A stretch of 32,000 nucleotides of DNA, from assembly GCF_000223395.1 (NCBI RefSeq), contig NC_015931.1, positions 270,001 through 302,000 of the forward strand, given 5' to 3'. The notes under the pieces are model-generated. The model did no database searches. It was not told the origin of the DNA and worked only from the letters and a program-made list of their open reading frames with translations. A program made the position numbers and the translations under genes. Positions 5,202 through 31,994 of the stretch are shown piece by piece. Source of the DNA: Pyrolobus fumarii 1A. GTDB taxonomy: Archaea > Thermoproteota > Thermoprotei_A > Sulfolobales > Pyrodictiaceae. Position 1 is the first letter of the stretch. Each line of letters starts with the position of its first letter.

Positions 5202-5245
5202 GTGTTGCCGGACTGCACGTTACGCGGTCTTAACATTGTCGTGGT

Positions 5246-16580: not shown

Positions 16581-16678
16581 CCGAGCTTAGCATGCAGGCT
16601 GATTGTCTCCCTTCACACGCCTTTGAGGCTTCTCATGAAGTTTTGAAGGTTCTGAGAGGTGGTCTCACGAACCCTCCT
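16581..16678. repeat. att-proximal segment of element 1, homologous (with gaps) to 22691..22769
   Basis: ccgagcttagca...ttgaggcttctcatgaagttttgaaggttct...gagaggtggtctcacgaaccctc aligns with ccggcttagca...ttgagcctcttcatgggttgagggttct...gagagtggtctcgggaaccctc next to the tRNA fragment. Confidence 0.55.
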
Positions 16679-16943
16679 ACCCTTCCCTCCCTCGGCTGTC
16701 CTCCTGCACTAGAGGCGCTGGAGCGCAAGGGGCCCTCCTTGTCCGTGTCTCCTCCTCGAGGCTGATCATGCCCTCCGCCGCGGCCCACGAGAGCGACTTG
16801 GATGCGAGCTTCAGTATCCACCTGTTGCAGGGGAGCCTCTCCAACCCGAGAGATTCTATGATGCTGCGGTACCTTTCCCAGTATCTCAGGTAGTCGCGTA
16901 CCGAGAGCGGCGCCGTTCTACGGATGTACTCCTCGAAGCGCAT
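16677..16943 (-). pseudogene. Integrase pseudogene: N-terminal part only, catalytic domain deleted
   Basis: 57 of the first 70 residues are identical (hand count) to the N-terminus of integrase 22881..23867. Weaker homology runs to about residue 100. The sequence then joins directly to the att-proximal segment, so roughly 0.8 kb present in element 2 is missing. Confidence 0.85.
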
Positions 16944-17070
16944 ACTGGCGTGTACCCGTTGCAGTAGGCTGCCAGCTGCAGTGTGCGCTTGAGCCTAACC
17001 GGGTCTCTATCCCTGCGACCCCGTGACACTCGGGCGTATGCAGTGACGCTATCCGCCCGGTTCATGGTAT

Positions 17071-17084
17071 CCAACCGTGGTTGG
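17071..17084. repeat. Palindrome family member, one-mismatch variant CCAACCGTGGTTGG
   Basis: About 130 bp upstream of the integrase pseudogene start, the same relative position as 23996..24007 in element 2. Confidence 0.8.
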
Positions 17085-17087
17085 GCC

Positions 17088-17101
17088 ACGGGCCCGTATG
17101 G
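17088..17101. promoter_or_regulatory. Inverted copy of the CTATACGGGCCCGT motif (ACGGGCCCGTATGG)
   Basis: Contains the 10-bp palindrome ACGGGCCCGT. See 17241, 24458 and 24582. Confidence 0.5.
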
Positions 17102-17240
17102 TATGGGATGCAAGGAAGGACCGGGAACGGGCCATAGATGAGACTGGTATAAGGCCCATGTCCGAGCCAGCTTCACGATTGTGAATCGGTCCCGTAGTCA
17201 GCTTGTATCCGGGTATCATAGATGCTCCCGGATGTAGACT

Positions 17241-17254
17241 CTATACGGGCCCGT
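17241..17254. promoter_or_regulatory. CTATACGGGCCCGT motif (contains 12-bp palindrome TACGGGCCCGTA), candidate operator
   Basis: About 35 nt upstream of the GTG of the element 1 RHH reading frame. An identical 14-mer sits at 24582..24595 upstream of the element 2 RHH gene. Confidence 0.55.
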
Positions 17255-17288
17255 AGTGGGGATGTAAACGGGGCTGGGTTCGCCGTCG

Positions 17289-17544
17289 GTGAGGTTATAC
17301 CTAGATCTCTCTAGGTACGCCGAACTCGAGAGGCTAGCCAGAGAGCGTGGAGTGGCGATACCGCAGCTCTTGAAGAGACTTGTCGGGGATTGGCTTGAGG
17401 GCAGGCTATGCGGGAACAGTGAGGCCTGAACTCTCCGTCGACGAGACTAGGATAGAGCGGTTGGAGAGGCGCTTGGAACTCCTTGAGGAGAAGGTGAAGG
17501 TGCTATTGAGACTGGTAGGTGGCCCCGGTTTTGCTTCAGGTTAA
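17289..17544 (+). pseudogene. Ribbon-helix-helix (CopG-like) gene, frameshifted
   Basis: GTG-MRLYLDLSRYAELERLARERGVAIPQLLKRLVGDWLEGRLCGNSEA-stop (17289..17429). The C-terminal coiled-coil part (SVDETRIERLERRLELLEEKVKVLLRLVGG) continues in another frame to 17544. Homologous to the intact gene 24624..24878. Confidence 0.8.
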
Positions 17545-17581
17545 TGAGGGTAATACAAGGTGTTTTGATCTCCATGGGTAG

Positions 17582-18052
17582 GTGTGCCCAGGTGATGTGC
17601 TGATGGTGAAACGTGAGGATCTCGTGTTGGCGGTTGCGTGGGAGCTTCTCCGGGCGCGTAGGGAGCGGGGGTTGCGTGATCCGGTACCGAGTCTCTATGA
17701 CCTTACTAAGGTGTTGGCGAGGCTCCGCGAGATGGGCGTCGATGTCGGGCTGGAGTTTATCGAGTACAGTCACGGGCCTTACAGCCCCGACCTCGAGCCG
17801 TTCCTCGAGGAATTGAGTGAGAGGGGCCTAGGCGTGTATAGGGTCGATGTCCATATTCCGCGTGCTCCGGTTGGTGTCGACCCAGACTATGCATGGGCCA
17901 TCATAGAGCACCAGTTGTCCGAGAGGGATGCAGACCGCAAGTATGTCCGGAAGAGGTTCGAGCCTCGCGCTGAACCGGGGCAGCTCCCCGGGGAACTCCA
18001 GGAGAAGATACGGGCAGCCGTCCGCGGCTATCTCGAGGAGGCGTCTAGGTGA
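17582..18052 (+). CDS. Hypothetical protein with possible Panacea (DUF4065/SocA-GepA)-like motif (156 aa)
   Basis: LTKVLARLREMG...FIEYSHGPYSPDLEPFLEEL loosely resembles the F-x-W-x-YGPV-x-P-x-hydrophobic-Y core of DUF4065. The likely start is the ATG at 17603. Ends in a TGA that is in frame with the next ORF. Confidence 0.5.
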   Translation: MCPGDVLMVKREDLVLAVAWELLRARRERGLRDPVPSLYDLTKVLARLREMGVDVGLEFIEYSHGPYSPDLEPFLEELSERGLGVYRVDVHIPRAPVGVDPDYAWAIIEHQLSERDADRKYVRKRFEPRAEPGQLPGELQEKIRAAVRGYLEEASR

Positions 18053-18058
18053 CGTGGC

Positions 18059-18937
18059 TTGTACGTTGCAGAGCTGGTGCTGGAGGGCACGCATTACTAT
18101 TGCTCCCGGCTTCTGGCGAGAGCGCAGCACGAGTGGCTCCTTCGCCTCGTGAGGGGTGGCGGGCTCCGTAGCCTTCTCGACGCCGCTGAGAAGGCATACA
18201 AGCTGTTGGATCTGCGTGAGGAGCTGAGAGGCCTAGGCGACATTCGTGTAAGTAGCGCGAAAGACCTCTTCGCACGCATATGCATCGAGGATGATGACGT
18301 TAGACGCCTGGTTGCCTCAGTGGCATCGGCCGTAGGCTACTCGAATATCGTACAGTTTCTGGCTGATCGTCACACGCTGCTCATCCTATACGGGGCTGCT
18401 GTCGGGTGCCACGAGCCCAGCGTATACTGTGTGCTGGAGCCTCGCTTCGAGGTAGAGAACCACGATCTAAGCAAAGAGCTGGAGGGGAAAAGCCTCCTTC
18501 CATACCGCCTCTTCGACCTCCTTGTCGTCGAAGGCAACAGACTACGACTAATCGAGGTCAAGTACATCCTCTCACGCGAAAAGAACCCCCGGGGCACCGT
18601 ACCCGGCGGCACGATGCTAGCCCACCTGGCGTCGTTCGTTGAGAAGCTCGTATCAACGGCACAGCTGCTACACGAGCCGCTGCGCACGGCAGGCTATACT
18701 GTAGAGTACCACTTTGTCGCCATACTCGGCCCCGGCAGGGAGATCAAAAAGAGCGTCTGGAAGCACATCGAGAAAATCACTGGCGCCCTAGAGAGCCTCA
18801 TAGAAGCACCCGTGGAACCACACAATACCCTATACATTGACATAGCGAGAGAAGTCCAGAATGCAAATCCCACGCCACCCTACGCCTACCGGGCAAAGAC
18901 CAAGCAAACCGATCAAAAAAGAGATACGAAGAGATAG
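18059..18937 (+). CDS. Hypothetical protein with PD-(D/E)xK nuclease-like motif (292 aa)
   Basis: EPRFEVE...LFDLLVVEGNRLRLIEVKY gives an E...D-x13-E-V-K pattern typical of the restriction-endonuclease-like fold. TTG start two codons after the upstream TGA, in the same frame. Confidence 0.55.
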   Translation: MYVAELVLEGTHYYCSRLLARAQHEWLLRLVRGGGLRSLLDAAEKAYKLLDLREELRGLGDIRVSSAKDLFARICIEDDDVRRLVASVASAVGYSNIVQFLADRHTLLILYGAAVGCHEPSVYCVLEPRFEVENHDLSKELEGKSLLPYRLFDLLVVEGNRLRLIEVKYILSREKNPRGTVPGGTMLAHLASFVEKLVSTAQLLHEPLRTAGYTVEYHFVAILGPGREIKKSVWKHIEKITGALESLIEAPVEPHNTLYIDIAREVQNANPTPPYAYRAKTKQTDQKRDTKR

Positions 18938-18942
18938 ACAAG

Positions 18943-19002
18943 AGACCGGTGGCATGGCGCGGTGAACGCATCGCGGTGTTTACATTTCGTTTTGAATGGT
19001 TA
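18943..19002 (+). repeat. Conserved intergenic module, divergent copy a
   Basis: agaccggtggcatggcgcggtgaacgcatcgcggtgtttacatttcgttttgaatggttac aligns with copies at 19155..19209 and 25845..25899. Confidence 0.6.
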
Positions 19003-19154
19003 CCCTTGCTGTCCCGATCGTCCCCCGGTGACGGGTGACCGGTTACCCTTGCACCGAGGCATCACCGCAGGCTATGCGGCGGTTACTGGGCCTTACAGTA
19101 CATCTAGACCATACCAGAGGACGAACAGGGAGGATTAGAATGGAAATAAAGGAA

Positions 19155-19209
19155 AGACCGGTGGTATGGTGTCGTAAGGTGCTCGTGTTGTTTTCATTCT
19201 GGTGTTGAC
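19155..19209 (+). repeat. Conserved intergenic module, copy b
   Basis: agaccggtggtatggtgtcgtaaggtgctcgtgttgttttcattctggtgttgac is nearly identical to 25845..25899 in element 2. Confidence 0.75.
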
Positions 19210-19283
19210 TTGACTTTGTGAGGCTTTGGCTGCGAGCCTCTCCCCACATAATACCGCATTGTGATGGTCTCACGGCGTAATGC

Positions 19284-19735
19284 TTAGTGCTGCTCGAGAG
19301 ATCAGCTGGTATCGTGACGACCCTAACGCTCTTACCGAGGTGCCACACCGTCTTGTAAGCCACCTTTACACCGCTGCTCCTCAACTTACTGTACAATAGA
19401 GATAGGCTCTAGTAGCCTAAGCGTCTGGCAGTCTCGCTTGTTAACGCGATAAACTCATCCTTCCTGAAAGCAGCATCTCCCTCGAGCAACTTAGGTAGCT
19501 GCTCCCGGATCTTCTCGAGGAGCGACTTCTCTCCGGCTGTGGCCCTGACCTTCTCTCTGCTCTTCCTCTTCTTGTGTTTCTCCCCCTCTTCAACCGCGGT
19601 TGGAGCACCTCAAGCCTCTCGCACACTATGTGATCATCGCGGTCGACGACCACCACTAGCCTCATGCAACCAGCCCGGATACACCACCTTAGAAGCTTCT
19701 AGGGTATACTCGTGGATCATGTCTCTTCGAGTTGC
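19284..19735 (-). pseudogene. Remnant of the large ATPase gene (C-terminal ~150 codons only; frameshift, internal deletion and a nonsense codon)
   Basis: Nucleotide homology to 25968..~26520. Readable pieces: RLVVVVDRDDHIVCERLEVLQPRL, EKSLLEKIREQLPKLLEGDAAFRKDEFIALTSETARRLGY-stop-SLSLLYSKLRSSGVKVAYKTVWHLGKSVRVVTIP. Element 2 has LGYQSLSQLYSEL, so this is CAG to TAG. The upper boundary is approximate. Confidence 0.85.
19591..19602. repeat. Palindrome family member, core CAACCGCGGTTG
   Basis: Perfect 12-bp palindrome kept inside the ATPase pseudogene. Positional homologue of 26373..26384. Confidence 0.85.
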
Positions 19736-19914
19736 CCACAGCTTCCTCGCGGAGGACATCGCTCATGTATTATTATAGGGGTTTAAGTGTGATGAATGCC
19801 GGGTTATCTTCGCTGTTGGACTTATCCTCCTCCCCGAGGAGCTATAGATGGGCTGGGTGTCCTCGCCAGATAACGGGGAGGTGGTTGCAGAGAGTTTGTG
19901 CAAAGCTAAGGGTC

Positions 19915-20133
19915 GTGGTGGAGTATGACCGTGAGGCTGACGCAGCATACATTCGGCTCGGGGAGGGGAGGGTGGCAGAGACCATGGAGGTTGAGCCCGG
20001 GGTGTTGCTTGACCTTGACGATGAGGGGAGGGTGATTGGCGTGGAGGTTCTCGAGGCGAGCGTGAGGCTTGGGCGCGTCCTTTCGAGGCTAGAGGAGCTA
20101 ACCGTCAAGGCCAGGACTGATTACCAGGTGTAA
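19915..20133 (+). CDS. DUF2283-family small protein (putative antitoxin-like partner)
   Basis: (V)VEYDREADAAYIRLGEGRVAETMEVEPGVLLDLDDEGRVIGVEVLEAS matches the DUF2283 pattern (YD.E.D.LYI.L...D.D..G.IVGIE.L.AS). GTG at 19915 is preferred over the long ORF starting at 19732. Confidence 0.7.
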   Translation: MVEYDREADAAYIRLGEGRVAETMEVEPGVLLDLDDEGRVIGVEVLEASVRLGRVLSRLEELTVKARTDYQV

Positions 20134-20169
20134 TTATAGCATGTCCAGTCTTGATAGCGGGAGTGTAGT

Positions 20170-20412
20170 TTGAGGATACGCCTAACCAGGCACGCTGAGG
20201 AGAGGCTGAGGGAGAGGGGTATCAGCCTCGAAGAGGTGAAGGTGTGCATCCAAAACCCAGACTATACCGAGGAGTCCAGGGGTGCACTTAGATGCTGGAA
20301 GAGGATGGGCGACAAGTACATCGTCGTGGTGTACCGGGTCGAGTGCAATCAGTGGATAGTTATAACGGCTTACAAGACCTCGAGGAGGCCGCGGCTACCC
20401 GGCAGGCAGTAG
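20170..20412 (+). CDS. DUF4258-family small protein (putative toxin-like partner)
   Basis: RLTRHAEERLRERGISLEEVKVCIQNPD...YIVVVY...IVITAYK matches the DUF4258 pattern (T.HA..RM.ERGIS.EEV). 36 nt downstream of the DUF2283 gene. Confidence 0.7.
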   Translation: MRIRLTRHAEERLRERGISLEEVKVCIQNPDYTEESRGALRCWKRMGDKYIVVVYRVECNQWIVITAYKTSRRPRLPGRQ

Positions 20413-20493
20413 ACACCCACGCCTCTGTCTGCCTTTAGCTTGATTCTTCCGCTCGGCGTCGCGTAAAGTATGATGGTAGAGGCTGCCTCGTCT

Positions 20494-20817
20494 TTATGGT
20501 TGTGAGGCTGTTTGATCGCTAGTGATCCTATACCCAGTGTTGCAGAGGGCATGGTACTCCTGTATCCCATCCTGACCAGTGACTATGTCTCTTCTAGCTC
20601 CGTGGAGACCATGCGACCCGCTGAGTTGGCAAGTGCTATTCTTGCGGTGCACGTTGTACTTCAGAACGTTGGATGCGTCGAAGCCGATATCGTCTACCTG
20701 GCAGTAGGCCCTGAGGATAATAATAAGCTGTCTAATCTGTCTAGTTATTGAGCCAAGAGTGGAGAGATATCGAGTGCAGAATCCGGCCAAGAGGGCATAA
20801 CATAGCGTGTTCGCCAT
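20494..20817 (-). CDS. Hypothetical ORF (107 aa), possibly a gene remnant
   Basis: Only the ORF length supports it. Sits in a lower-GC stretch. A second overlapping ORF (20370..20570) in another frame suggests a frameshifted relic. Confidence 0.25.
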   Translation of the reverse strand: MANTLCYALLAGFCTRYLSTLGSITRQIRQLIIILRAYCQVDDIGFDASNVLKYNVHRKNSTCQLSGSHGLHGARRDIVTGQDGIQEYHALCNTGYRITSDQTASQP

Positions 20818-21128
20818 GTTAGCCCAGCCTCTTTAGGCTCGAGATTGCGAAGATTTTTGTGAAAGTGTAGCTAAGCCGTGCTAAACCATAATTATGTTGT
20901 TGCGATCCGTGTGAGCGGCTGTATGGCTAACAATGGTACTCCTATAGTCTTGTCTGTGAGCGTTGCACTAACAGCCCCCAGGATGTGTGTTTGTCTCTCT
21001 TCGTCGCGCACCCGGCGAGGGCGAGAGGCGATTGAGTGCAATGCGTGGCTCCACAGCCTCCGGTAATACGTTGTATGCTTCGCGTGTTACATTGTTCCTC
21101 CACGGTTCACGCAATAAGCTCCATTAGG

Positions 21129-22859: not shown

Positions 22860-23087
22860 TTGCTTAACGCGCGTGTGGTGTTAACGCGTTATGCGAGGGT
22901 TCAGGTCAAGGTAAAGCCTGGCGGCAAGGAGCAGTACGTTGTAACCCTGCCCGTTGATATTGTCAAGTTGCTTGGCCTGAGGCGTGGCGACTGCCTCTCC
23001 TTCAACGTCATAGACGTTGGTGGTAGGCTCGTGCTGGTTGTCGACCGGAGCCCTGTCGACGCCTGTAGAGGCCCTCCTAGAGGCTAG
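22860..23087 (+). CDS. AbrB/SpoVT-like DNA-binding protein (75 aa)
   Basis: YVVTLPVDIVKLLGLRRGDCLSFNVIDVGGRLVLVV matches the swapped-hairpin AbrB/SpoVT pattern (hydrophobic-T-hydrophobic-P..hydrophobic...LG...GD.hydrophobic...). Lies antisense inside the 3' end of the integrase ORF. Confidence 0.6.
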   Translation: MLNARVVLTRYARVQVKVKPGGKEQYVVTLPVDIVKLLGLRRGDCLSFNVIDVGGRLVLVVDRSPVDACRGPPRG

Positions 23088-23867
23088 GATCTTCTCTATC
23101 GCCTCCTCTATCGTCGAGCCGTTCAGCAACGCCTCTATCCCAGGCTTCATCTCGAGGGTCTTTCTCACCGAGTGCGCCACGTACATCATGTAGTGCTTTA
23201 CTGACACAGGCCTGTGACGTCCGTGAAGAAAGCTGCATAGCAGCTCCTCCTCGCCACTTGCCGTCGCCAAGCAGAGTTCATAGTGGATCTTGCGCAGGCA
23301 GGTTGCCGGTGTCCCTTTGATTTCTCTTCTCGATTCGTAACTATACTCCTTGACAACACGCAACAACCTCTCCTCGAGATCAACCGGGAGTATGATGACG
23401 TTGACGCGCTTCCTGCCTATCGTTGCCTTCAGGTCGTAGACGGCTAGGCCCGCGGCGATCCGCCTCTTCGACGTGAACCTCGGGAGGAGCCACAGGTGTT
23501 TCAAGCGGCTTCCGCTCCACAGGACAGCTTGTTGTAACGTCTGCGCCCACTCCTTCTCGTCGAGCTCCACTCTACCCCAGTCCTCACAGCGCTCCCAGCC
23601 CTCGCCCCTCCTCCCCTCGATCACCCTCCCGCAGGCGAGCCTCTTGAGCGCCAGGAGCCTACGGGCCCGCGCCTCCTCCTCGAGGCTAATCCTCCCTTCG
23701 CTGGCCGCCCACGAGAGCCACTTTGACGCGAGCTTCAGGACCCACTTGTTGCACGGGAGCCTCTCGAACCCGAGAGACTCTATGATGCTGTGGTACCCCT
23801 CCCAGTACCTCATGTAGTCCCGGTAGCTTAGCGGCGCGGTCTTGCGGATGTACTCCTCGAAGCGCAT
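22881..23867 (-). CDS. int: Tyrosine recombinase (archaeal integrase family), 328-codon ORF
   Basis: C-terminal catalytic-type block FLHGRHRPVSVKHYMMY and upstream SGSRLKHLW. Adjacent to the tRNA-derived att. Its N-terminus is duplicated in the pseudogene 16677..16943. The last ~69 codons overlap the AbrB-like gene in antisense and may not be genuine. Confidence 0.8.
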   Translation of the reverse strand: MRFEEYIRKTAPLSYRDYMRYWEGYHSIIESLGFERLPCNKWVLKLASKWLSWAASEGRISLEEEARARRLLALKRLACGRVIEGRRGEGWERCEDWGRVELDEKEWAQTLQQAVLWSGSRLKHLWLLPRFTSKRRIAAGLAVYDLKATIGRKRVNVIILPVDLEERLLRVVKEYSYESRREIKGTPATCLRKIHYELCLATASGEEELLCSFLHGRHRPVSVKHYMMYVAHSVRKTLEMKPGIEALLNGSTIEEAIEKILASRRASTGVDRAPVDNQHEPTTNVYDVEGEAVATPQAKQLDNINGQGYNVLLLAARLYLDLNPRITR

Positions 23868-23995
23868 ACCGGCGTGTACCCGTTGTGTCTGGCCCCCGGT
23901 TGCAGTACACGCTTGAGCCTACTCGCTCCTCAAGCCTTGCGACCTCGTGACACCCGGGTGTATGTGGCGATGGTATCTGCTCCATTCACCGTGTA

Positions 23996-24007
23996 CAACC
24001 GCGGTTG
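23996..24007. repeat. Palindrome family member, core CAACCGCGGTTG
   Basis: Perfect 12-bp palindrome about 130 bp upstream of the integrase start. Confidence 0.85.
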
Positions 24008-24237
24008 GGCAGGTGCGGTGCCGCGTCTCGCCACAAGGCATTCAGGGCAAACGTGTGTGTTACGAGCGTGTTATGCGTCTACACAGGGCTCCTCGGGCGA
24101 CAGGCAACGGCAGTGGGGGACGCTAATCATCCCCTTTCCTCAGAGACGAGCGGAAAGAATTGCCAGTGATACTGTGGTATCACTTGCCTTGCATGCCGAT
24201 AGGGAGCGAGGGTAGGACCAGTGTACCGGGGGGTACA

Positions 24238-24367
24238 CCGGGGCCCGAGTCCCCCGCCCGGGGCAGCCTCGGCCGCTCTGTGAAGAGAGCGTGGACCGGC
24301 CGAACCCGTGAGGAGGGTGCGAACCGATGAGAGCGGCCTTGGCCCCGGGCGGGGCGGGATACCCCGG
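24238..24367. ncRNA. Candidate structured RNA or DNA cruciform: 130-nt GC-rich segment with about 32 nested base pairs
   Basis: Hand-checked pairings: 24238-43 with 24362-67 (6 bp), 24244-47 with 24355-58 (4 bp), 24252-64 with 24342-54 (13 bp), 24271-79 with 24330-38 (9 bp). A small hairpin at 24221-38 lies immediately upstream. Only low-complexity ORFs overlap. Strand unknown. Confidence 0.35.
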
Positions 24368-24420
24368 CTTACGTCTTGCTAGAGTCTTGTCTGTTAAGCG
24401 TTTGGGGTTGTTCACTCCCT

Positions 24421-24434
24421 CCAGCCGCGGTTGG
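24421..24434. repeat. Palindrome family member, one-mismatch variant CCAGCCGCGGTTGG
   Basis: In the integrase-RHH spacer, flanked by t...a like the 16-bp form. Confidence 0.75.
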
Positions 24435-24457
24435 AGTTCAAGGGCTGCGGACAGCCT

Positions 24458-24471
24458 CTATACGGGCCGGT
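24458..24471. promoter_or_regulatory. CTATACGGGCCGGT motif (one-mismatch copy)
   Basis: Direct repeat of 24582..24595, 124 nt upstream of it. Confidence 0.5.
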
Positions 24472-24581
24472 GACGGGATCATAACAAACCCTCAACGGGC
24501 TCGTATAGGAACCGTTATTGTTCCTGGCGCTAGGTGCAGGGTTCGTCCGCTTATAGCTCGTCTTGGGAATGGAGGCAGCCC

Positions 24582-24595
24582 CTATACGGGCCCGT
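24582..24595. promoter_or_regulatory. CTATACGGGCCCGT motif, candidate operator/promoter element of the RHH gene
   Basis: Identical 14-mer to 17241..17254. About 30-40 nt upstream of the GTG at 24624. Confidence 0.55.
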
Positions 24596-24623
24596 CTCTG
24601 GTGCCCTACCTGGGGCTGTCTTC

Positions 24624-24878
24624 GTGCCTCCGGTCAAGTTCTACCTTGATCCCTCCCGTTACGCTGAGCTGGAGAGGTTGGCGAGGGAGAGGGGTACGAC
24701 GATCCCCCAGCTTGTCAAGCGGCTCGTCGAGGATTGGCTCGAGGGCAGGCTGTGTGCCGGCACCGGGGCCAGACCCGGGCACAGTGTCGACGAGGCTAGG
24801 CTCCGTGAGTTCGAGAGACGCCTCGAACTCCTAGAGGAGACCGTGAAGGCTCTGCTCAGGATCATAGCGGGGAGGTGA
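24624..24878 (+). CDS. Ribbon-helix-helix (CopG/Arc-like) DNA-binding protein with C-terminal coiled coil
   Basis: VKFYLDPSRYAELERLARERGTTIPQLVKRLVEDWL is a strand-helix-helix RHH layout, followed by EARLREFERRLELLEETVKALLRII. The longest ORF starts at 24534, but the upstream part overlaps the operator-like motif and has no counterpart in element 1. Confidence 0.75.
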   Translation: MPPVKFYLDPSRYAELERLARERGTTIPQLVKRLVEDWLEGRLCAGTGARPGHSVDEARLREFERRLELLEETVKALLRIIAGR

Positions 24879-24885
24879 TATTGTC

Positions 24886-25839
24886 GTGGGCTCGGAGACA
24901 CTCTATGAGTTTACCCGAAGGCTTGTGAGGGAGTCAAAATGGCTTCAGAAGGTGCTTATGATACTAACGTATGCGTCTCTTATAGTGCTGGTGTCGGCAC
25001 TCATCCTGCAAGGCACGTTGCACAGCACGAGCGTATTGGTGGATGTGCTGCAGACGATTATACTGTCGTTGACGCTCCTTCTCACCATACCCCAGTTAAT
25101 CATCACGCCGTACACCGAGTACCTCAAGGTTCTCGAGGAACGGAGGTATAGGCACTGGTCTAGGCTTCGCGAGGCGCTCATAGTGCCACTGGCTAAACTG
25201 ATACTACACGAGAGTCGTTTTAGGGAGAGTTTTGAGGCCGGTTGCTACCTCCCAGTCTGCAGCATGCTAAGACGCTTGATGATCGACCACGGCCTTCAAC
25301 CCTACTACGAGGATCTAGGGAACCACGAGGCTACTCGGGGCCTCTACGAGGCCCTCCGCAGCCTCTGCGGGCCCCTAGACCACGTCTGCGGCTCGGGCCT
25401 CGACGCGGAGATAGAAGATCTCGTGGAAGCTGCGCTGAGGGAGGCTGGCATAGACCCCGGGAAGCCGCCCGGCCCGGCTGTCGAGGAGGCCGTACGCTGC
25501 GCAATCCACGTGGCAGCGCCTCAGGCCGCTGCGTTCATGCGGGGAGAAGACTGGCTCCGGGCTCTAAAGCAGCGCATCGTAGACGAACTCACCAGAACCA
25601 TGCCAAGCTGCACAACGACGGATGTAACAGTCGTTGGCGACCCTCTACTGCCGCGCGAGAAGGCCGAAGAAATAGCAGAGAGGATAGTCGAGAAGATCAG
25701 GAAGAGCCACCTACACGAGAGGCTCAAAGAGCTATACAGGAAGCTACGCGAAGAGCTAAACAGGGCGCTACTCTACGAGACACTTACCGACGACTGCCCC
25801 TACACGCTACCAGAGGCCAAGAAGAGCAAGAAGAGATAG
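24886..25839 (+). CDS. Membrane protein (two N-terminal TM helices) with unassigned cytoplasmic domain, 317 aa
   Basis: GTG start 8 nt after the RHH stop (operon-like), with GGAGG 11 nt upstream. Hydrophobic segments LMILTYASLIVLVSALIL and ILSLTLLLTIPQLII. Basic C-terminal tail. Confidence 0.6.
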   Translation: MGSETLYEFTRRLVRESKWLQKVLMILTYASLIVLVSALILQGTLHSTSVLVDVLQTIILSLTLLLTIPQLIITPYTEYLKVLEERRYRHWSRLREALIVPLAKLILHESRFRESFEAGCYLPVCSMLRRLMIDHGLQPYYEDLGNHEATRGLYEALRSLCGPLDHVCGSGLDAEIEDLVEAALREAGIDPGKPPGPAVEEAVRCAIHVAAPQAAAFMRGEDWLRALKQRIVDELTRTMPSCTTTDVTVVGDPLLPREKAEEIAERIVEKIRKSHLHERLKELYRKLREELNRALLYETLTDDCPYTLPEAKKSKKR

Positions 25840-25844
25840 ACGAG

Positions 25845-25899
25845 AGACCGGCGGCATGGTGCTGTGAGGTGCTCGCGTTGTTTTCATTCTGGTGTTGAC
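25845..25899 (+). repeat. Conserved intergenic module, copy c
   Basis: agaccggcggcatggtgctgtgaggtgctcgcgttgttttcattctggtgttgac. Lies between convergent genes. Contains a T-rich run (ttgttttcattc) on the plus strand. Confidence 0.75.
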
Positions 25900-25900
25900 T

Positions 25901-25958
25901 CGTGAGGCCTCGGTCGCGACCACCTCGCAGCATAATAACGTATTGTGAGGGCCTCACG
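25901..25958. other. Hairpin with 9-bp perfect stem (cgtgaggcc / ggcctcacg) and 40-nt loop
   Basis: 25901-25909 is complementary to 25950-25958. Lies between the stop codons of the convergent genes. A weaker equivalent exists in element 1 (19218-19275). Confidence 0.4.
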
Positions 25959-25967
25959 GTGCATAGT

Positions 25968-28900
25968 CTACTGCTGCTCGAGGAGCTTGGCGGGTAGCGC
26001 GACGACCCTAACACTCCTGCCCCGGTACCACACCGTCTTGTAGACAGCCTCAATGCCGCTGTTTCTTAGCTCGCTGTACAGCTGGGATAGGCTCTGGTAG
26101 CCTAGGTGTTTGACAGCCTCGCTCGTCAGCGCGATAAACTCCTTCTTCCTAAAGGCCGATCCCTCCTCGAGGAGCCTTGGCAGCTCATCCAGGATCTTCT
26201 CGAGTATAGACTTCCCTCCAGCTTTGGCTTCGACACTCTCTCCTTGTACCTTGGAGGCTTCCTCCTCTTCACCCTCTGCTCCAACCGCGGTTGGAACCAC
26301 TCTCACCTCCAGCGTCTCGAGAAGCTCAGCCAAGAGGTCTGGGTCGGCTCCTAGGGCTGCAGCAACCCGGTTCAACCGCAGTTGGAGCACCCGCAGTCTC
26401 TCCTCGACGACCCCAGGATCCCGGTCGACGACGATCACCAGCCTTCCGCAGCCTGCCCTGACGCAGCGCTTGAGGAGCTTCAGGGTATACTCGTGCGTCA
26501 TGTGCCTCTCCGGGTCGCTAACCACCTCGACGCAGAGAGCCTCACCCCAGTGCTCGTCGTCCAGGGGCTTCAGGGCGACGATATCCGGCCTATCCTCGCC
26601 ACCGGCCTTGTCAACCACGACATAGTAGCCTCTCTCGGCGAGCTCCTCCGCGATAGACCTGATGGCCTCGCGGTGCCACCCGCCGCCGTGCCTCGTCGAG
26701 AAGTCTAGTAGCTCCTCGCCCCTAGAGGTTAGGATGAGCTGCTCTCCCTTAAGCTCGAGGAACCCCCTCTGCCGGAGAGACTCTACGACCTGAGCTGCCC
26801 TCACCAGCCCAAGCTGCTCCGCAAGCCTACCCAGGGTCAAACCGCTCTTCTCGACCTGAACAAGGATCCTCCATTCTAGTGGCGACACCGGGGCCTCGAC
26901 GCTAACCCTCTCTGTCGACACCGGCGCGCCGTGGCGCCCGAGGCTCTCCTCGATCCTAGACCTGACAACCGGGTCGTCTAGGTAGGGGTTGCCTCTGCCC
27001 AGCTCCACGGGTATGTAGGGCGCCCTGAGGGTGAATGGTCGTAGCGTCGTCTTCCCGACTCTTATGCGCGCTATGAACGTGTAGTCGGGGAGGTTGATCA
27101 GGTCGTGGTCGGTGGCGTAGGGCTCGTATAGCTTCCTAAGCTCCCTGGCAGAGACAAGGCCGACCTGGAAGGTGAACACGTGCTTGGCCAGCTCGTAGAG
27201 CGCGGCACGCAGCCTCTCGGGGAGCTGCCTGGGATACTGGGTCATGGCGACCAGGAACACGCGGAACTTCCGGGTCTCCGCCATCATCTGCGCTATGAGC
27301 CTCGCCAACGCCGGCGACACGAAGTTGTGAAGCTCGTCGACAAAGACGAATGCTGTTGGTCTATCCTCCTCGCCGCGCTCGCCGCGCGCGTAGGCCGCCG
27401 CAAAGATCCTCGAGAGTATCAGGGAGCCGAAGAAGTTGAGGCTCTCAGTACCCTTCAGGGCACCCATGTTAACGACAACAATGTAGCCATTGTCGAGGGC
27501 CCAGCCTAGGTCAACCGTGGAGCGTTTGGCCTCCACGAACGGCCTTATCAACGGGTCCAGGGTGAACTTCCCGAGCTTGTTGAGAACCGACTGGACCGCA
27601 TCCGGCGCCTTCTTCAAGAGCGCGGGGTACTGCTCCTCCCAGAACTCTGCCACCTCATCATCCTCCACGTACTCTAGGAACCTTGCACGAGTCTCCTCAT
27701 CGACGAACACGCGGTACACGTCGCTAAGGCTGTAGGAGCCTGGCGGCGCGCTCAACACAAGCTTAACCGCCATCCTCATCAGGTGCTCGGTTCTCGGGCC
27801 CCAGAACCTCTGAAAGTATGCAGCAACCGCCCCCAGGAAAGTCTCCTGGAGCTTGTCGCGCTCGGCGGGCTCCCGGTACTCGAGGAAGTTGATCTTAACC
27901 ACGCGGCCATAATACTCGACCGTGCGCGGATCGATGTAGACGAGCCTATCGACACACTCCTCCGGGAGGCTCTTAACCAGCTTAAGCGCGTCATCGCCGT
28001 TAGGATCGATGTATACTATTGAGGTTCTACCGCAGCCCTCGGCCGCAAGCAGAGAGAGCATAAGGTAACGCGCGTAGCTAGACTTGCCGGCGCCGGTAGT
28101 CCCGAAGATGGCCTTGTGTGCACGCGAGAACTCGGAGACAGGAAGGCCGTACGCGGTGCCCTCGAACAAGCCTAGCGGCACGACGCGCCTGCCGCCCACA
28201 AGCCTCCTCAGGTCATCGAAGCTAAGCTCCCCCGGAAGCTCCCCGATCTTCACGATCTCGGGCGGCGGCTCTAAGACAGCGATGCCGAGGCGAACCGGGA
28301 GGCTCGGCACGGGCCTCGGCACGTTGACGAGAGCCGCAAGCTCCTTGGGTGTTAGGACTGGTAGCCTCTTGTCCCTGAAGAAGACGCCCAGATGCTCAAC
28401 CTCTCTTCTCCTAATCCTCTCGAGCATCTTCTCGTCAAGCCTCTTGATCCTACAGACTATGTTGTTGTAGTGGAACTGGTGGAAGGCCTCGCAGACACGC
28501 TCCACCTTACCCTTATCATCTGCGACCACCCTGACGGCGACAGCGTAGAGACGGTGCATGAGCTTAGCCTCAGCCTGCCTAACCTCCTCGTTCTCGACGG
28601 GCAGCAGATGCCGCTGCATCATGTAATGCTGGCGGCGCATCAACTCGTCATACGGGCTGTACGACGGGTCTATCAGGTCCAGCAGCTCCCTAACAACCAT
28701 CTTGACCGTCGACTCTCCACCCCCACGCCTCCTGTTATACACCCACTCTGCGATCACGCTCTTTGCCCGAGGCTCGTGCTCCCAGCATATCTGGACGAAG
28801 ACACCAGGCTCAACAGCATCGATCCACAATGCGGCTGTGTTTATGCTCACGGGCTTCTTCTCGGTGTGCTTGAAGAGCGGGTGGTAGAAACCCCTCTCAA

Positions 28901-29189
28901 GCCTCCCGACACCCACCCAGCCCCTGCTCGGAGGCTCCGGGGGCCTAGCCTCGACGACAACCAGCCTACCCTCGAAGAGATCCTGCAGAGCCTTCTTCAC
29001 GCCACCAGCCTCACCCTCAGCAACCAGCAGGTACAAGCGGAGATGCCTACCGTCGTGCACCACCTCGAAGCAGCCACGATGAAGCCTGGCCAAGAGATGC
29101 TCCAGGGCAAGAGGCTCCGGGTCGATCTCGGGATGCGGGAGAAGCTCCAGAGCCCTGAACCTCCACACGTTGCCCTGTCTACCGAGCAA
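25968..29189 (-). CDS. Large P-loop ATPase (HerA/FtsK/VirB4-VirD4-like) fused to a wHTH and a restriction-endonuclease-like C-terminal region (1073 aa)
   Basis: Walker A FGTTGAGKSS (about 28081-28110). Walker B AFVFVDELHNF (about 27330-27356). MTQYPRQL block. wHTH-like LEWRILVQVEKSGLTLGRLAEQLGL...LRQRGFLEL. GEDRPDIVALKP...ALCVEVVSD (about 26517-26600) looks like a PD-(D/E)xK fold, but the canonical Lys is not evident. TTG start. Confidence 0.8.
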   Translation of the reverse strand: MLGRQGNVWRFRALELLPHPEIDPEPLALEHLLARLHRGCFEVVHDGRHLRLYLLVAEGEAGGVKKALQDLFEGRLVVVEARPPEPPSRGWVGVGRLERGFYHPLFKHTEKKPVSINTAALWIDAVEPGVFVQICWEHEPRAKSVIAEWVYNRRRGGGESTVKMVVRELLDLIDPSYSPYDELMRRQHYMMQRHLLPVENEEVRQAEAKLMHRLYAVAVRVVADDKGKVERVCEAFHQFHYNNIVCRIKRLDEKMLERIRRREVEHLGVFFRDKRLPVLTPKELAALVNVPRPVPSLPVRLGIAVLEPPPEIVKIGELPGELSFDDLRRLVGGRRVVPLGLFEGTAYGLPVSEFSRAHKAIFGTTGAGKSSYARYLMLSLLAAEGCGRTSIVYIDPNGDDALKLVKSLPEECVDRLVYIDPRTVEYYGRVVKINFLEYREPAERDKLQETFLGAVAAYFQRFWGPRTEHLMRMAVKLVLSAPPGSYSLSDVYRVFVDEETRARFLEYVEDDEVAEFWEEQYPALLKKAPDAVQSVLNKLGKFTLDPLIRPFVEAKRSTVDLGWALDNGYIVVVNMGALKGTESLNFFGSLILSRIFAAAYARGERGEEDRPTAFVFVDELHNFVSPALARLIAQMMAETRKFRVFLVAMTQYPRQLPERLRAALYELAKHVFTFQVGLVSARELRKLYEPYATDHDLINLPDYTFIARIRVGKTTLRPFTLRAPYIPVELGRGNPYLDDPVVRSRIEESLGRHGAPVSTERVSVEAPVSPLEWRILVQVEKSGLTLGRLAEQLGLVRAAQVVESLRQRGFLELKGEQLILTSRGEELLDFSTRHGGGWHREAIRSIAEELAERGYYVVVDKAGGEDRPDIVALKPLDDEHWGEALCVEVVSDPERHMTHEYTLKLLKRCVRAGCGRLVIVVDRDPGVVEERLRVLQLRLNRVAAALGADPDLLAELLETLEVRVVPTAVGAEGEEEEASKVQGESVEAKAGGKSILEKILDELPRLLEEGSAFRKKEFIALTSEAVKHLGYQSLSQLYSELRNSGIEAVYKTVWYRGRSVRVVALPAKLLEQQ
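26280..26295. repeat. Palindrome family member, perfect 16-bp TCCAACCGCGGTTGGA
   Basis: Inside the ATPase coding sequence, translated PTAVG on the minus strand. Confidence 0.9.
26373..26384. repeat. Palindrome family member, one-mismatch variant CAACCGCAGTTG
   Basis: Inside the ATPase coding sequence. Positional homologue of the perfect copy at 19591..19602 in element 1. Confidence 0.7.
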
Positions 29190-29267
29190 CCCGGGGCCCC
29201 GCCTGGGAGGCGTGTCAACCGCAGTGGGCGCGGAGCATCACGGATCCCAACACCCGTTAGCTTAGGC

Positions 29268-29283
29268 TCCAACCGCGGTTGGA
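29268..29283. repeat. Palindrome family member, perfect 16-bp TCCAACCGCGGTTGGA
   Basis: Intergenic. Lies 1 nt below the stop end of the AbrB-like gene 29285..29500 and about 80 nt upstream of the ATPase start. Confidence 0.9.
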
Positions 29284-29284
29284 C

Positions 29285-29500
29285 CTATCCTCCTTTCCCG
29301 CTCTCGGCATCCTCGTACACAGGCTCTAGCAAGATCCTCCCAGTCTCCTCGTCTAGGCACACCCTGTAAGCCACTATCCCGAGCTTCTCGACGAGATAGA
29401 GGGGGACCCTGACCTTCACGTAGGAGTCCCTCCTCTTCCTTCCTCGCCAGGTCTTCGTGGTGAGCGTCAGCTTCACAATCCTCTCGCCGCTGCACCGCAA
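29285..29500 (-). CDS. AbrB/SpoVT-like small DNA-binding protein (71 aa from TTG; an alternative GTG start at 29476)
   Basis: SYVKVRVPLYLVEKLGIVAYRVCLDEETGRILLEP has the same layout as the AbrB-like ORF 22860..23087. Immediately upstream of the ATPase on the same strand. Confidence 0.5.
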   Translation of the reverse strand: MRCSGERIVKLTLTTKTWRGRKRRDSYVKVRVPLYLVEKLGIVAYRVCLDEETGRILLEPVYEDAESGKGG

Positions 29501-29517
29501 GGCAGCAGCCCCGAGGG

Positions 29518-29931
29518 GTGTACACCCGCAGAGGCTTTAAACCACCACGTAGGGCGTACACCCCACGGTGGCGGGGCTTGGCCGAGGAGAGGCGCGACAA
29601 AACCCAGGTGTACCTCGAGCGGGCAAAGAGCCTAGAGGAGAAGGCGAGGTCGACGTTCAACATGGGGTTTGTCGCCCTAGGCTCCATGCTCGTGCTCGCA
29701 AAATTCCTGAAGGATGTGATCGCACAGACGATCGTCATACTCCTGGGGCTGGGTGTCGCCGGGGTAGCTGTGCTGCAAGCTGCTATAATGAGCCGGGACG
29801 CCGAGAGGATATGGGAGAGGCTGTTGAGAGACCCGAGCCCCTACCCCAAGCTCACACTCATACAGGGGATCCTCCTGCTCGCCATCGGGGTGGCGGCGCT
29901 CATCCTAGCACTCCTCGGCCTCTGGAGGTGA
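29518..29931 (+). CDS. Membrane protein (about three TM helices), 137 aa
   Basis: Hydrophobic segments FVALGSMLVLAKFL, IVILLGLGVAGVAVLQAAI and LIQGILLLAIGVAALILALLGL. Stop overlaps the GTG start region of the next gene. The real start may be an internal Met. Confidence 0.5.
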   Translation: MYTRRGFKPPRRAYTPRWRGLAEERRDKTQVYLERAKSLEEKARSTFNMGFVALGSMLVLAKFLKDVIAQTIVILLGLGVAGVAVLQAAIMSRDAERIWERLLRDPSPYPKLTLIQGILLLAIGVAALILALLGLWR

Positions 29932-29935
29932 TAGT

Positions 29936-31168
29936 GTGAAGAGGCTCACGGCGCTCCTACTCCTGGCTCTCCTCGCCCTCGCCGCCCTCCTCCTCTACAC
30001 GCACGCCGCCGGGACCAACCGCGGTTGGACACCAGACCTGAAACCCGGCACCACCATCACCCTCGAGGAGATCAAACACCTTGAGGAGAGCGGCTGGAGG
30101 CTGGTTAGAACCCCGCTCTACAAGGGCGTGTTTCACGACGCGCCTTGCCCGTCCGGCCTCCTGCTAGCCTACAAGCCTGGGCCTCATAACGGCCCTCTAG
30201 GGGTCTCGTGGAGGACGGCAGACTGGGTCTACACGACGAGAACAGTAAAGCTGAGCAGCGTCGCCAACGCTACGATCTACTACCGCGCGAGACCCACAGC
30301 CACAGTCTACGCCACGAGCATAGCCTACTGCCTCGAGAAGATCAACAACACCGCCTACAGGGTGACAAACTACCTGAAACCAGCATACTACGCAAAGAGC
30401 TACACACTAGAGCCACACAGGATAGTCGTCAAGGTGGACCACGAGGCGTTCGAGAAGCTGCTGAGGAGAGAGTGGGTCGAGTCTTACGTGGCTAAGCTTC
30501 GGGTTTCTCCAAGGCTCGCCGAGGAGAGTGTTAACGACGTGCGTATCGTTGGCTGGTTTCGCGTGGAGAGGCGCGTCTGCGGGGTCGATGTTGTCGTCGA
30601 GGCTCCGAGGCTTAGAGTGGTTTACGGGGATCCCGCCTACACCTACCCCAACAGCTACCTGCGGCACGTCATAGTGTCGTTGGCGAGGTTCATGTGGGAG
30701 CTGCGCGTCTGCACACCCGACGAGGCGGTTAAGGCGAGCTACTGGATCATCTACGGCGGCGACGACACCGACCCATATCCGCCAAACTGGTTGATCAATG
30801 GCGGTGTATGTTGGCAATGGTCTGAGTGGACATTCAGGGCACTGAGGATGCTAGGCTTGCCAGTCTACCTCCTCTACACCCCCGGTAACCCGCCACACGA
30901 GTCTACACTCCTCTGTAGAGAGAGACCAGTGGCCTACCGCGGTTGGTGCTATGGGCTCCTTGCCGTAAACCCGGAGAGTGGGAAGAGGATCATCTGCTGG
31001 CTCTTCGACGACACGGGTTATGTGACAAGCCTTTGGAGGGAGATTGCGAAGATAGGCGCGAGGGTGCATCTAGGCAAGCAGGCATATCCGCCCGAGATAT
31101 ACAGGGTTGTAAAAACATGGGTGGGGTGTAGGATCCCAAGCGACGCTTTCAACGCTACGGCGGGATGA
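29936..31168 (+). CDS. Secreted transglutaminase-like (papain-fold Cys-His-Asp) protein, 410 aa
   Basis: Signal peptide MKRLTALLLLALLALAALLLYTHA. GGVCWQWSEWTFRALRMLGLPVYLLY...PHESTLL...WLFDDTGY resembles the transglutaminase-core pattern G.C..FS..F.ALLR.LGIP.R.V...H.W.E...FD.T. Confidence 0.5.
   Translation: MKRLTALLLLALLALAALLLYTHAAGTNRGWTPDLKPGTTITLEEIKHLEESGWRLVRTPLYKGVFHDAPCPSGLLLAYKPGPHNGPLGVSWRTADWVYTTRTVKLSSVANATIYYRARPTATVYATSIAYCLEKINNTAYRVTNYLKPAYYAKSYTLEPHRIVVKVDHEAFEKLLRREWVESYVAKLRVSPRLAEESVNDVRIVGWFRVERRVCGVDVVVEAPRLRVVYGDPAYTYPNSYLRHVIVSLARFMWELRVCTPDEAVKASYWIIYGGDDTDPYPPNWLINGGVCWQWSEWTFRALRMLGLPVYLLYTPGNPPHESTLLCRERPVAYRGWCYGLLAVNPESGKRIICWLFDDTGYVTSLWREIAKIGARVHLGKQAYPPEIYRVVKTWVGCRIPSDAFNATAG
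30015..30028. repeat. Palindrome family member, perfect 14-bp CCAACCGCGGTTGG
   Basis: Inside the secreted-protein gene just after the signal peptide, translated NRGW on the plus strand. This is a different frame from the ATPase copy. Confidence 0.9.
30933..30946. repeat. Palindrome family member, one-mismatch variant CCTACCGCGGTTGG
   Basis: Inside the secreted-protein gene, translated YRGW. Confidence 0.7.
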
Positions 31169-31994
31169 CCACTATCCTGGCTGTTAGCGGGGTTCTCCAG
31201 ACGCCCAGCTCCTCGTATGGGATCCTGAGCGTCTCGTTGAGCGCCACCACGTGGTATAGGAGTGCTCCGGTAGCAGCATCGTAGATGTACACCTGGCTGC
31301 CTATCGGCACCCCTGTTATCGTCACGTAGGGGTTGCTAGCCACGAGGAGCTTCGCTACCCACGCTGGTATCGGTACCGTTGGCGCTGTCGGCGGGGACTC
31401 GATGTAGAATGTTATGTTGACGGTGTGAGCTCCTGGGGGTAGCACCTCCCTCATTAGCCTCCATGTGAGCGGTGCCCATAGCTTCCTCCTGAACACATCG
31501 TCCACATACACGTAGGGTATCGTCTGTGCTAGTACGTCGGAGCCCCAGGCGCCGGGTACCCTGCCGTAGAAGCCCATCAGGTACGCGTACACTACGCAGC
31601 CCCCGTCGCAGCTCACGTTGAAGATTAGGCCTGCCCTTGGCCACTCTACCCACAGTTTCAGGGCATTGCCGAGGTTCGTGTCCTCGTAGGTTACCAGCGT
31701 GTAATTACCCCAGAGTTGGAGGCCGAGATCCTCGCCTGCGCAGGGTTCCAGCTCGCTCTCGAAGCAGTAGTACGAGATGAGACCCTCCGCCTCCTTCACA
31801 ACCTCATAGTCCGTCGCGTTGATCTTTACAACCCTGATTAAATCGCCGGGCCATAGTGTGCCGGTCCACACGGCTGGCTTCGCGGCCTCCGGTACGAGCT
31901 CCACGCGCCACACGCTAAACGCGTAGAGAGTGTCAATCTGGTTGAATGGCGCCGCTCCAGCCCTGGCTCTGCTGATGTTATACCATAGGCTCAC
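31155..31994 (-). CDS. Hypothetical protein (at least 279 aa), may extend beyond the window
   Basis: Long ORF convergent with 29936..31168 and overlapping its end by 14 nt. Several N-x-S/T sequons. No recognised motif. The first Met is 6 nt from the window edge. Confidence 0.5.
   Translation of the reverse strand: MSLWYNISRARAGAAPFNQIDTLYAFSVWRVELVPEAAKPAVWTGTLWPGDLIRVVKINATDYEVVKEAEGLISYYCFESELEPCAGEDLGLQLWGNYTLVTYEDTNLGNALKLWVEWPRAGLIFNVSCDGGCVVYAYLMGFYGRVPGAWGSDVLAQTIPYVYVDDVFRRKLWAPLTWRLMREVLPPGAHTVNITFYIESPPTAPTVPIPAWVAKLLVASNPYVTITGVPIGSQVYIYDAATGALLYHVVALNETLRIPYEELGVWRTPLTARIVVIPP

Follow-up and report, generated by a model that had tools for sequence, protein, structure and literature searches.

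The replication origin of the Sulfolobus plasmid pRN1 is a 100-nucleotide (nt) stem-loop with a 58-nt loop that carries a GTG; it has a neighboring 19-nt hairpin and works with the CopG-like orf56 (Joshua et al. 2013, PMC3869888). Here we describe a folded segment of similar outline in an integrative, conjugation-like element of the Pyrodictiaceae, located in a 32,000-nt stretch of the Pyrolobus fumarii 1A genome (NC_015931.1, positions 270,001 to 302,000; hereafter the window, whose own numbering is used throughout). The segment lies between the genes for an integrase of the SSV (Sulfolobus spindle-shaped virus) type, Pyrfu_0324, and a CopG-type ribbon-helix-helix (RHH) protein, Pyrfu_0325, and our analysis shows it to be genuine: it does not code for protein, its structure is conserved, and it is under strong purifying selection. 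The window holds tandem copies of one element family, the decayed element 1 (16590-21000) upstream and element 2 (22881-31200). In line with the initial annotation of this DNA, the segment proved to be non-coding and structured, present in the intact element 2 and absent from element 1.

The likeness to pRN1 goes beyond the hairpin itself. Both are crenarchaeal plasmid-type elements with a long stem-loop, a loop of ~50-58 nt containing GTG and an adjacent small hairpin, and in both a CopG-like RHH gene is functionally linked to the non-coding region. Their sequences are not similar, however, and here the stem has ~32 base pairs (bp) and 75% GC, with a promoter-like box pointing into it. The location also differs, between integrase and RHH genes in this element and 3' of the primase-helicase gene in pRN1, and no ORF904-like Rep was found here. 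Hairpins of single-stranded DNA (ssDNA) serve as the single-strand origins (sso) of rolling-circle plasmids and as the transfer origin and promoter sites (oriT/Frpo) of conjugative plasmids. Such folded sites, including integron attC, CTX-phage attP(+), sso, and Frpo, share with the segment an imperfect hairpin with bulges on fixed sides, a variable terminal structure, a structure kept more than the sequence, and an adjoining tyrosine recombinase gene. In contrast to them, the segment has no AAC/GTT core triplets at the stem base, and its hairpin is intact inside the integrated element; we know of no archaeal counterparts of these recombination and priming sites. Regulatory or copy-control RNAs of plasmids and phages (countertranscripts and the C-rich-loop small RNAs of the Staphylococcus RsaE/RNAIII type) are likewise element-encoded, promoter-proximal, stable stem-loops with conserved pyrimidine-rich unpaired motifs. 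The segment differs from these in being archaeal and extremely GC-clamped, in overlapping no opposite-strand gene, in having no target that we could find, and in showing no family-level similarity in Rfam.

Described in the direction of the integrase gene (minus strand), the segment and its immediate surroundings are made up as follows.

24392-24404, minus strand: promoter-like box CAAACG-CTTAACA, consisting of a part like the B recognition element (BRE) and a TATA-like part, reading towards the hairpin.
24362-24367, minus strand, pairing with 24238-24243: outer helix Ho, 5' arm CCGGGG in the integrase sense, read from the sequence.
24355-24358, minus strand, pairing with 24244-24247: helix Hc, CCCG, read from the sequence (CCCG/CGGG on the plus strand).
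24342-24354, minus strand, pairing with 24252-24264: helix H1, 13 pairs, all G-C (CCCCGCCCGGGGC/GCCCCGGGCGGGG on the plus strand).
24330-24338, minus strand, pairing with 24271-24279: helix H2, 9 bp (GGCCGCTCT/AGAGCGGCC on the plus strand).
24280-24329, minus strand: apical domain of ~50 nt, variable in secondary structure, from the alignments.
24216-24239, minus strand: side hairpin H3; the core (24221-24238) has 7 bp and a 4-nt loop, and the stem can be lengthened to 10 bp.
24207-24219, minus strand: conserved unpaired tail GGUCCUACC (GGTAGGACC at 24211-24219 on the plus strand).
24009-24440: module of ~425 nt, present or absent as a whole, bounded by two palindrome-plus-GTGAA units and containing the structured segment.
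24421-24434: palindrome CCAGCCGCGGTTGG with GTGAA, immediately preceding the promoter-like box; a paralogous unit precedes the integrase at 23995-24008.

Four nested helices around a 50-nt apical region, with a separate 7-bp hairpin at 24221-24238, had been drawn by hand in the initial annotation, and direct reading of the sequence places all of them where they had been drawn. The nested pairs total 6 + 4 + 13 + 9 = 32, and the hairpin core reads GTGTACC-GGGG-GGTACAC on the plus strand. The 13-bp helix was present too, but it had been described as G-C in all positions except one, whereas all 13 pairs are G-C. On the plus strand, Ho joins CCGGGG (24238-24243) to CCCCGG (24362-24367), and across four homologous sequences it is invariant bar one C·A in one of them (L012). 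Hc is flanked by two bulges, one of 3-5 nt between Ho and Hc (5' side) and a conserved UCU/GACU of 3-4 nt between H1 and Hc (3' side), and neither changes sides in any homologue. The internal loop at the H1/H2 junction ranges from 0x1 to 3x6. Within the apical domain there is an invariant motif, CUCCUCACG (CGTGAGGAG on the plus strand, 24307-24315), followed by CGGC; with no mismatch allowed, the motif has one other site in the window, at 18215. The CCCC loop of H3 on the minus strand is conserved, and L013 keeps the H3 stem although its loop carries a 13-nt insertion. The tail that follows is the end of a block conserved between distant elements.

RNAfold predicted the nested stem for either strand, with -90.9 kcal/mol over the 161-nt stretch on the minus strand (z = -3.76, none of 200 shuffles as good) and -88.3 kcal/mol on the plus strand (z = -2.15, 5 of 200 shuffles as good). 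Dinucleotide shuffles of the 166-nt unit gave z-scores of -4.75 (minus) and -2.51 (plus) at 37°C and of -4.2 and -2.9, respectively, at 90°C. With z below -2 on both strands, the segment folds better than dinucleotide-shuffled sequence. P. fumarii is a 113°C archaeon, and at 106°C the long GC stem persists in the prediction with -13 kcal/mol, which is as expected for a hyperthermophile RNA. Local GC content is 73-78%, compared with ~55-60% in the surroundings. Both nhmmer and a covariance model found the segment once in the window and no residual copy in element 1. The strings there that had been taken for its traces (GATGAGA and ggaccg/cggtcc) are isolated 7-mers with an E value of ~4, expected by chance, and element 1 simply lacks the segment. 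One 12-mer common to the segment and the element 1 RHH gene (17340) is not conserved.

To reach homologues, we searched for proteins related to the integrase or to the RHH protein; each had only a handful of relatives, whose contigs we then retrieved. This yielded three further full homologues in vent metagenome contigs (L003, L012, and L013) plus partial copies: L005 is the same element as L012 from another sample, L014 is identical to L013, and the contig end cuts off the copy in L015. P. fumarii and L012 give a BLAST match over exactly 24207-24367, with 80.7% identity over 166 nt, compared with 43% for the integrases and 74% for the RHH proteins of the same two elements. It stops exactly at the borders of the structure, and the flanking spacer is not alignable. 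One element breaks at the hairpin in three independent assemblies (L005 starts inside it, L004 ends just before it, and L012 starts ~150 nt away), probably because the long GC-rich inverted repeat hampers assembly.

Folded singly, each of the four distinct sequences (P. fumarii, L003, L012, and L013) gave the common long stem. In a hand-fitted structural alignment of the four, pairing is kept in 94.8% of 154 cells, and both sides have changed in 9 of 39 pairs; the search for compensatory substitutions in homologues that had been proposed earlier thus had a positive outcome. Most of the changes fall in H2: compared with P. fumarii (GGCCGCUCU/AGAGCGGCC), the other three sequences (CCCGCCGCC/GGCGGCGGG) have both partners replaced in 6 of the 9 pairs and keep the pairing. 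L003 also has a run of three H1 pairs in reversed orientation (G-C to C-G and so on) and a U·G in place of another. As a control, registers slid by 1-3 columns paired in 37-52% of cells with at most two pairs changed on both sides, and none of 1,000 column shuffles attained the observed pairing values. Because the sequence changes while complementarity is kept, the selected object is probably a folded single strand and not a double-stranded palindromic protein site.

The homologues are separated by indels of 1, 2, and 13 nt and have no start codon common to all, and the segment is therefore non-coding. A small open reading frame (ORF) behind a Shine-Dalgarno-like GAGGAGG (ATG at 24327, GTG in L012) was rejected since L003 and L013 have no start and 1-nt indels break the frame. 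ARAGORN found nothing that would make the segment a remnant of a transfer RNA (tRNA) gene or attachment (att) site.

The ~425-nt module is present in element 2, L003, L012/L005, and L013 and absent from element 1 and L001/L002. Elements without it have a single palindrome, CCAACCGCGGTTGG, between integrase and RHH genes, and those with it have two, each followed by GTGAA. The segment is also absent from the more distant loci L006, L007, and L018. Scanning with a DNA pattern returned no further members in the genome collection, two matches in the metagenome collection, both due to chance, and none or chance matches only in the viral collection. An integrase profile search led to one distant locus, without the module, a further protein search led to more integrases without it, and BLAST against plasmids and phages gave no match. 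Within the databases searched, the family is restricted to a few Pyrodictiaceae integrative elements.

The promoter-like box follows the pattern CAAnCGCTTWACA in five of five sequences, with variable flanks, and this consensus match is by its nature no proof of use. Spacer indels compensate one another, so that box and helix base are 27-31 nt apart in each of the five, and the A-rich, BRE-like side of the box is upstream only in the minus orientation. Elsewhere in the window, the 44-nt spacer (5202-5245) between the divergent host genes 3684-5201 (minus strand) and 5246-8011 (plus strand) contains TGTTAAGA/CTTAACA ~30 nt before the ATG of the minus-strand gene, which is likely the TATA box of a leaderless messenger RNA (mRNA). 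The CTTAACA heptamer common to this gene pair and the box at the segment makes a box of this TTAAG type plausible for P. fumarii. The z-scores at 90°C are better for the minus strand in three of the four sequences.

We tentatively favor an interpretation of the segment as a small, element-encoded structured RNA gene with its own promoter, read in the direction of the integrase. Minus-strand transcription from the BRE/TATA-like promoter at 24392-24404 would start at the base of the long hairpin, a predicted position of ~24367-24371 where GT(T/C/A)A is conserved, and would give an RNA body of ~165 nt, possibly up to ~215 nt. The candidate promoter follows a copy of the palindrome AACCGCGGTT, which is found ahead of the integrase control region as well, and on this model RNA and integrase would be regulated together. 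A near-pure G-C, bulged stem of ~30 bp would hold the fold at >100°C and display the ~50-nt apical domain with its invariant pyrimidine-rich CUCCUCACG, and the stem would be followed by the short CCCC-loop hairpin and then by the conserved tail GGUCCUACC. These C/U-rich unpaired motifs are likely contact surfaces, either for a protein of the element or for a G-rich RNA site such as a Shine-Dalgarno region, and the RNA may regulate the maintenance, excision, or transfer program of the element. Transcription, strand, ends, and regulatory role are what we infer from this arrangement.

Several observations weigh against the RNA gene or its direction. Targets for CUCCUCACG and GGUCCUACC within the element occur at chance level, and no complementary or antisense target was found. 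The initial annotation had offered a structured RNA, including an antisense one, or a folded DNA; both options are still live, and it is the antisense version that lacks a target. The compensatory changes sit in two lineage-specific clusters, and with four sequences the covariation statistics are weak for this reason; automatic alignments mis-register H2 and give much weaker numbers. As to the strand, the TATA-like box is nearly symmetric, and about seven cells, most of them in H3 or at the ends of helices, form a pair on the plus strand alone (C·A on the minus strand being G·U on the plus strand), compared with about five that do so on the minus strand alone. Mismatches in H3 favor the plus strand in three homologues, and in three of the four sequences the plus strand has the lower absolute energy and the better RNAalifold consensus. 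After the structure there is no run of at least five T on the minus strand, while L003 and L015 carry TTT(T)CTT directly after the hairpin on the plus strand. The wobble pairs favor neither strand consistently.

A folded ssDNA signal, extruded when the element is single-stranded or unwound and serving as a replication origin, priming site, transfer-origin-like site, or single-strand promoter, is the alternative that we take most seriously, while regarding it as unlikely. Compensatory changes suit ssDNA hairpins equally as well as RNA, and a wobble asymmetry with no consistent strand would fit as well. The segment lies in the non-coding control region beside a CopG-like RHH gene, as in plasmid origins, and the pRN1 origin provides a precedent, with the invariant loop motif here reading CGTGAGGAG on the plus strand. 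The element also encodes a DNA-translocating ATPase with weak CedD/TraD/VirB4 similarity, the RHH protein of L012 is NikA-like, and the module is dispensable in related elements, like sso cassettes. However, searches of the element proteins against Pfam, PHROGs, NCBIfam, and PDB recognized no Rep/initiator, primase, or relaxase, and there is no conserved AT-rich unwinding region adjacent to the hairpin. The 317-amino-acid product of the gene behind RHH and the 410-amino-acid core protein both have hydrophobic N termini and resemble membrane or secreted proteins instead. A DNA signal also leaves the promoter-like box, conserved at fixed spacing, unexplained, and to our knowledge conjugation via ssDNA has not been demonstrated in archaea.

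If the small RNA we favor were instead only the beginning of a longer transcript, the structure would be the 5' leader of the integrase mRNA and act in cis on integrase translation or mRNA stability at extreme temperature. The structure has the integrase orientation, it lies 340-500 nt upstream of the integrase ATG (23867), and no strong terminator separates the two. Presence of the segment also goes with an intact integrase in element 2 and L004/L005, and both close relatives that lack the module have a decayed integrase (element 1 and L001/L002, the latter with a 237-amino-acid remnant); for L003 and L013 no such judgment is possible, since the contig ends within or short of the integrase gene. 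Between structure and integrase, however, there is a second palindrome and TATA-like unit, which is the sole such unit in module-less elements, so that the integrase seems to be served by a promoter of its own. On the minus strand, 60-70 nt past the structure, comes a loosely conserved hairpin with TTCTT(T/G) behind it, and long mRNA leaders are uncommon in Crenarchaeota. We consider a leader distinctly less plausible than a folded DNA signal and clearly unlikely.

A structured RNA of the opposite strand, for example a small RNA or a terminator hairpin read towards the RHH gene, would account for the lower free energies and fuller RNAalifold consensus of the plus strand in three of four sequences, for the H3 mismatches that turn into G·U, and for the T-runs right after the hairpin in L003 and L015. 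Against this, no conserved TATA-like box is found at a suitable distance upstream, the T-runs are missing from P. fumarii, L012, and L013, the 90°C z-scores point to the minus strand in three of the four sequences, and there is no upstream gene on the plus strand to terminate. We give this possibility little credence.

Still more speculative, and in our view improbable, is an RNA or folded-DNA cofactor of the element machinery, meaning either a partner RNA of the SSV-type integrase or of DNA transfer that controls or directs excision, integration, or transfer, or a first archaeal conjugative single-strand origin or promoter hairpin. The partner RNA would be the counterpart, in archaea and for a tyrosine recombinase, of known recombinase-associated RNAs. 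Among these, the bridge RNA of the IS110 family offers a parallel, as the segment would likewise be a structured RNA of ~170-200 nt encoded directly ahead of the recombinase gene of a mobile element and in the same orientation. Here, in contrast, the enzyme is an SSV-type integrase of the tyrosine class, the internal loops are very small and vary in size, and there is no complementarity to the tRNA-Arg region. A bridge-type guide RNA was rejected on the last point: the L012 RNA and the L004 tRNA-Arg region have no complementarity of 9 nt or more, and matches in the window are not enriched.

The segment matches no described RNA family, and the Rfam check that had been suggested gave no family match at gathering thresholds anywhere in the 32-kb window. 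Models of C/D and H/ACA RNAs stayed below their cut-offs (sR14, 13.8 of 38 bits; sR60, 13.8 of 50; PyrR205, 14 of 35.6; PyrR206, 20.8 of 46), and an H/ACA guide pocket was rejected given the H1/H2 internal loop, which varies from 0x1 to 3x6, and the lack of a conserved ACA. The best match in E-value mode was drz-agam-1 (RF01787), a ribozyme like that of hepatitis delta virus (HDV), at 24254-24338 on the minus strand, with 25.6 bits against a gathering threshold of 37 and E = 0.0098 in an 851-nt search. The P. fumarii copy has the L3-like CCUCCUC of these ribozymes and their GGCCG...CGGCCGG arrangement (GGCCG/CGGCC plus GG). None of six homologous loci (L003, L013, L014, L015, L005, and L012) matches, however; L003 and L013 read CGGCAUAG where the 3' strand of P1 plus the GG of P1.1 are required, L012 forms a 7-bp hairpin where a 3-bp P3 is required, and the candidate 5' strand of P1 is one arm of the covarying helix H2. 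The resemblance to an L7Ae-binding kink-turn noted earlier at the inner helix belongs to the P. fumarii copy alone: the motif can be drawn only on its plus strand (UGU-GA / GA-GAGCGGCC), and L003, L012, and L013 have no tandem G-A pairs flanking that helix, the stem-adjacent nucleotides being AG in L012 and CA in L003 and L013. With a score below gathering, no homologue match, a fold that conflicts with H2, and G-A positions that are not conserved, neither a minus-strand ribozyme that cleaves itself as HDV does nor a ribonucleoprotein RNA built on a kink-turn is credible to any extent worth more than a mention, in spite of the 25.6-bit match and the GA/GA arrangement.

The integrase ORF of element 2, at 22881-23867 on the minus strand, encodes a protein identical to Pyrfu_0324 and has an archaeal SSV-type integrase domain. 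In element 1, which is ~3.3 kb shorter than element 2, the integrase gene is reduced to its N-terminal part and the RHH gene is stopped after 46 codons (17289-17429). The RHH gene of element 2 occupies 24624-24878, and the conserved start of Pyrfu_0325 is the GTG at 24624. This gene is followed by the gene for a 317-amino-acid protein with hydrophobic N-terminal segments and a membrane or secreted look, and the P-loop ATPase of the element (1,073 amino acids) has HerA/FtsK domains. A 410-amino-acid orphan (29936-31168, plus strand) has an N terminus like a signal peptide and 7 relatives among 1.84 billion representative proteins. It is retained even in the minimal element of L001, with 422 amino acids there, and it weakly matches (E = 1e-4) the C-terminal part of P0003, called an integrase on L003, which suggests that the P0003 gene call is chimeric.

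In L004, a tRNA-Arg(GCG) gene (1427-1507) directly follows the integrase stop codon, making it a likely attachment site. A tRNA-Ser(GGA) gene (6413-6500) in L001, at the far end of the short element beside the ribosomal S10 gene, is likely another. No tRNA genes were found in the P. fumarii window.

The palindrome AACCGCGGTT, usually in the form CCAACCGCGGTTGG, has nine copies in the two elements (17073, 19592, 23997, 24423, 26283, 26374, 29271, 30017, and 30935), and with at most one mismatch there are 10 in the window compared with 0.67 expected; several of the copies fall within genes, namely those for the ATPase and the 410-amino-acid protein. The palindrome could be an operator, an iteron, or a centromere-like site, perhaps for the RHH protein. 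A further box, CTATACGGGCC(C/G)G, is repeated at 24447-24471 and 24571-24595 and occurs also at 17230-17254; the copy at 24581 precedes the RHH GTG by ~40 nt and resembles a promoter for that gene, and element 2 has a second copy 124 nt upstream. All related loci, whether or not they contain the module, conserve another palindrome, ACACCCGGGTGT (23950-23961), ahead of the integrase. It follows a GGATAC(C/A)ATCG box at a distance of ~25-30 nt and may mark the start of integrase transcription or an operator.

The segment is compact (161 nt), with clear borders and a clear promoter candidate, in a group of elements whose proteins are almost all orphans. If it is transcribed, it would represent a new family of structured RNA on mobile elements of the most heat-tolerant cultivated archaea, folded at >100°C and tied to integrase control. 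If it is folded DNA, it would give a first handle on how replication or transfer is started in an uncharacterized class of archaeal integrative, conjugation-like elements.

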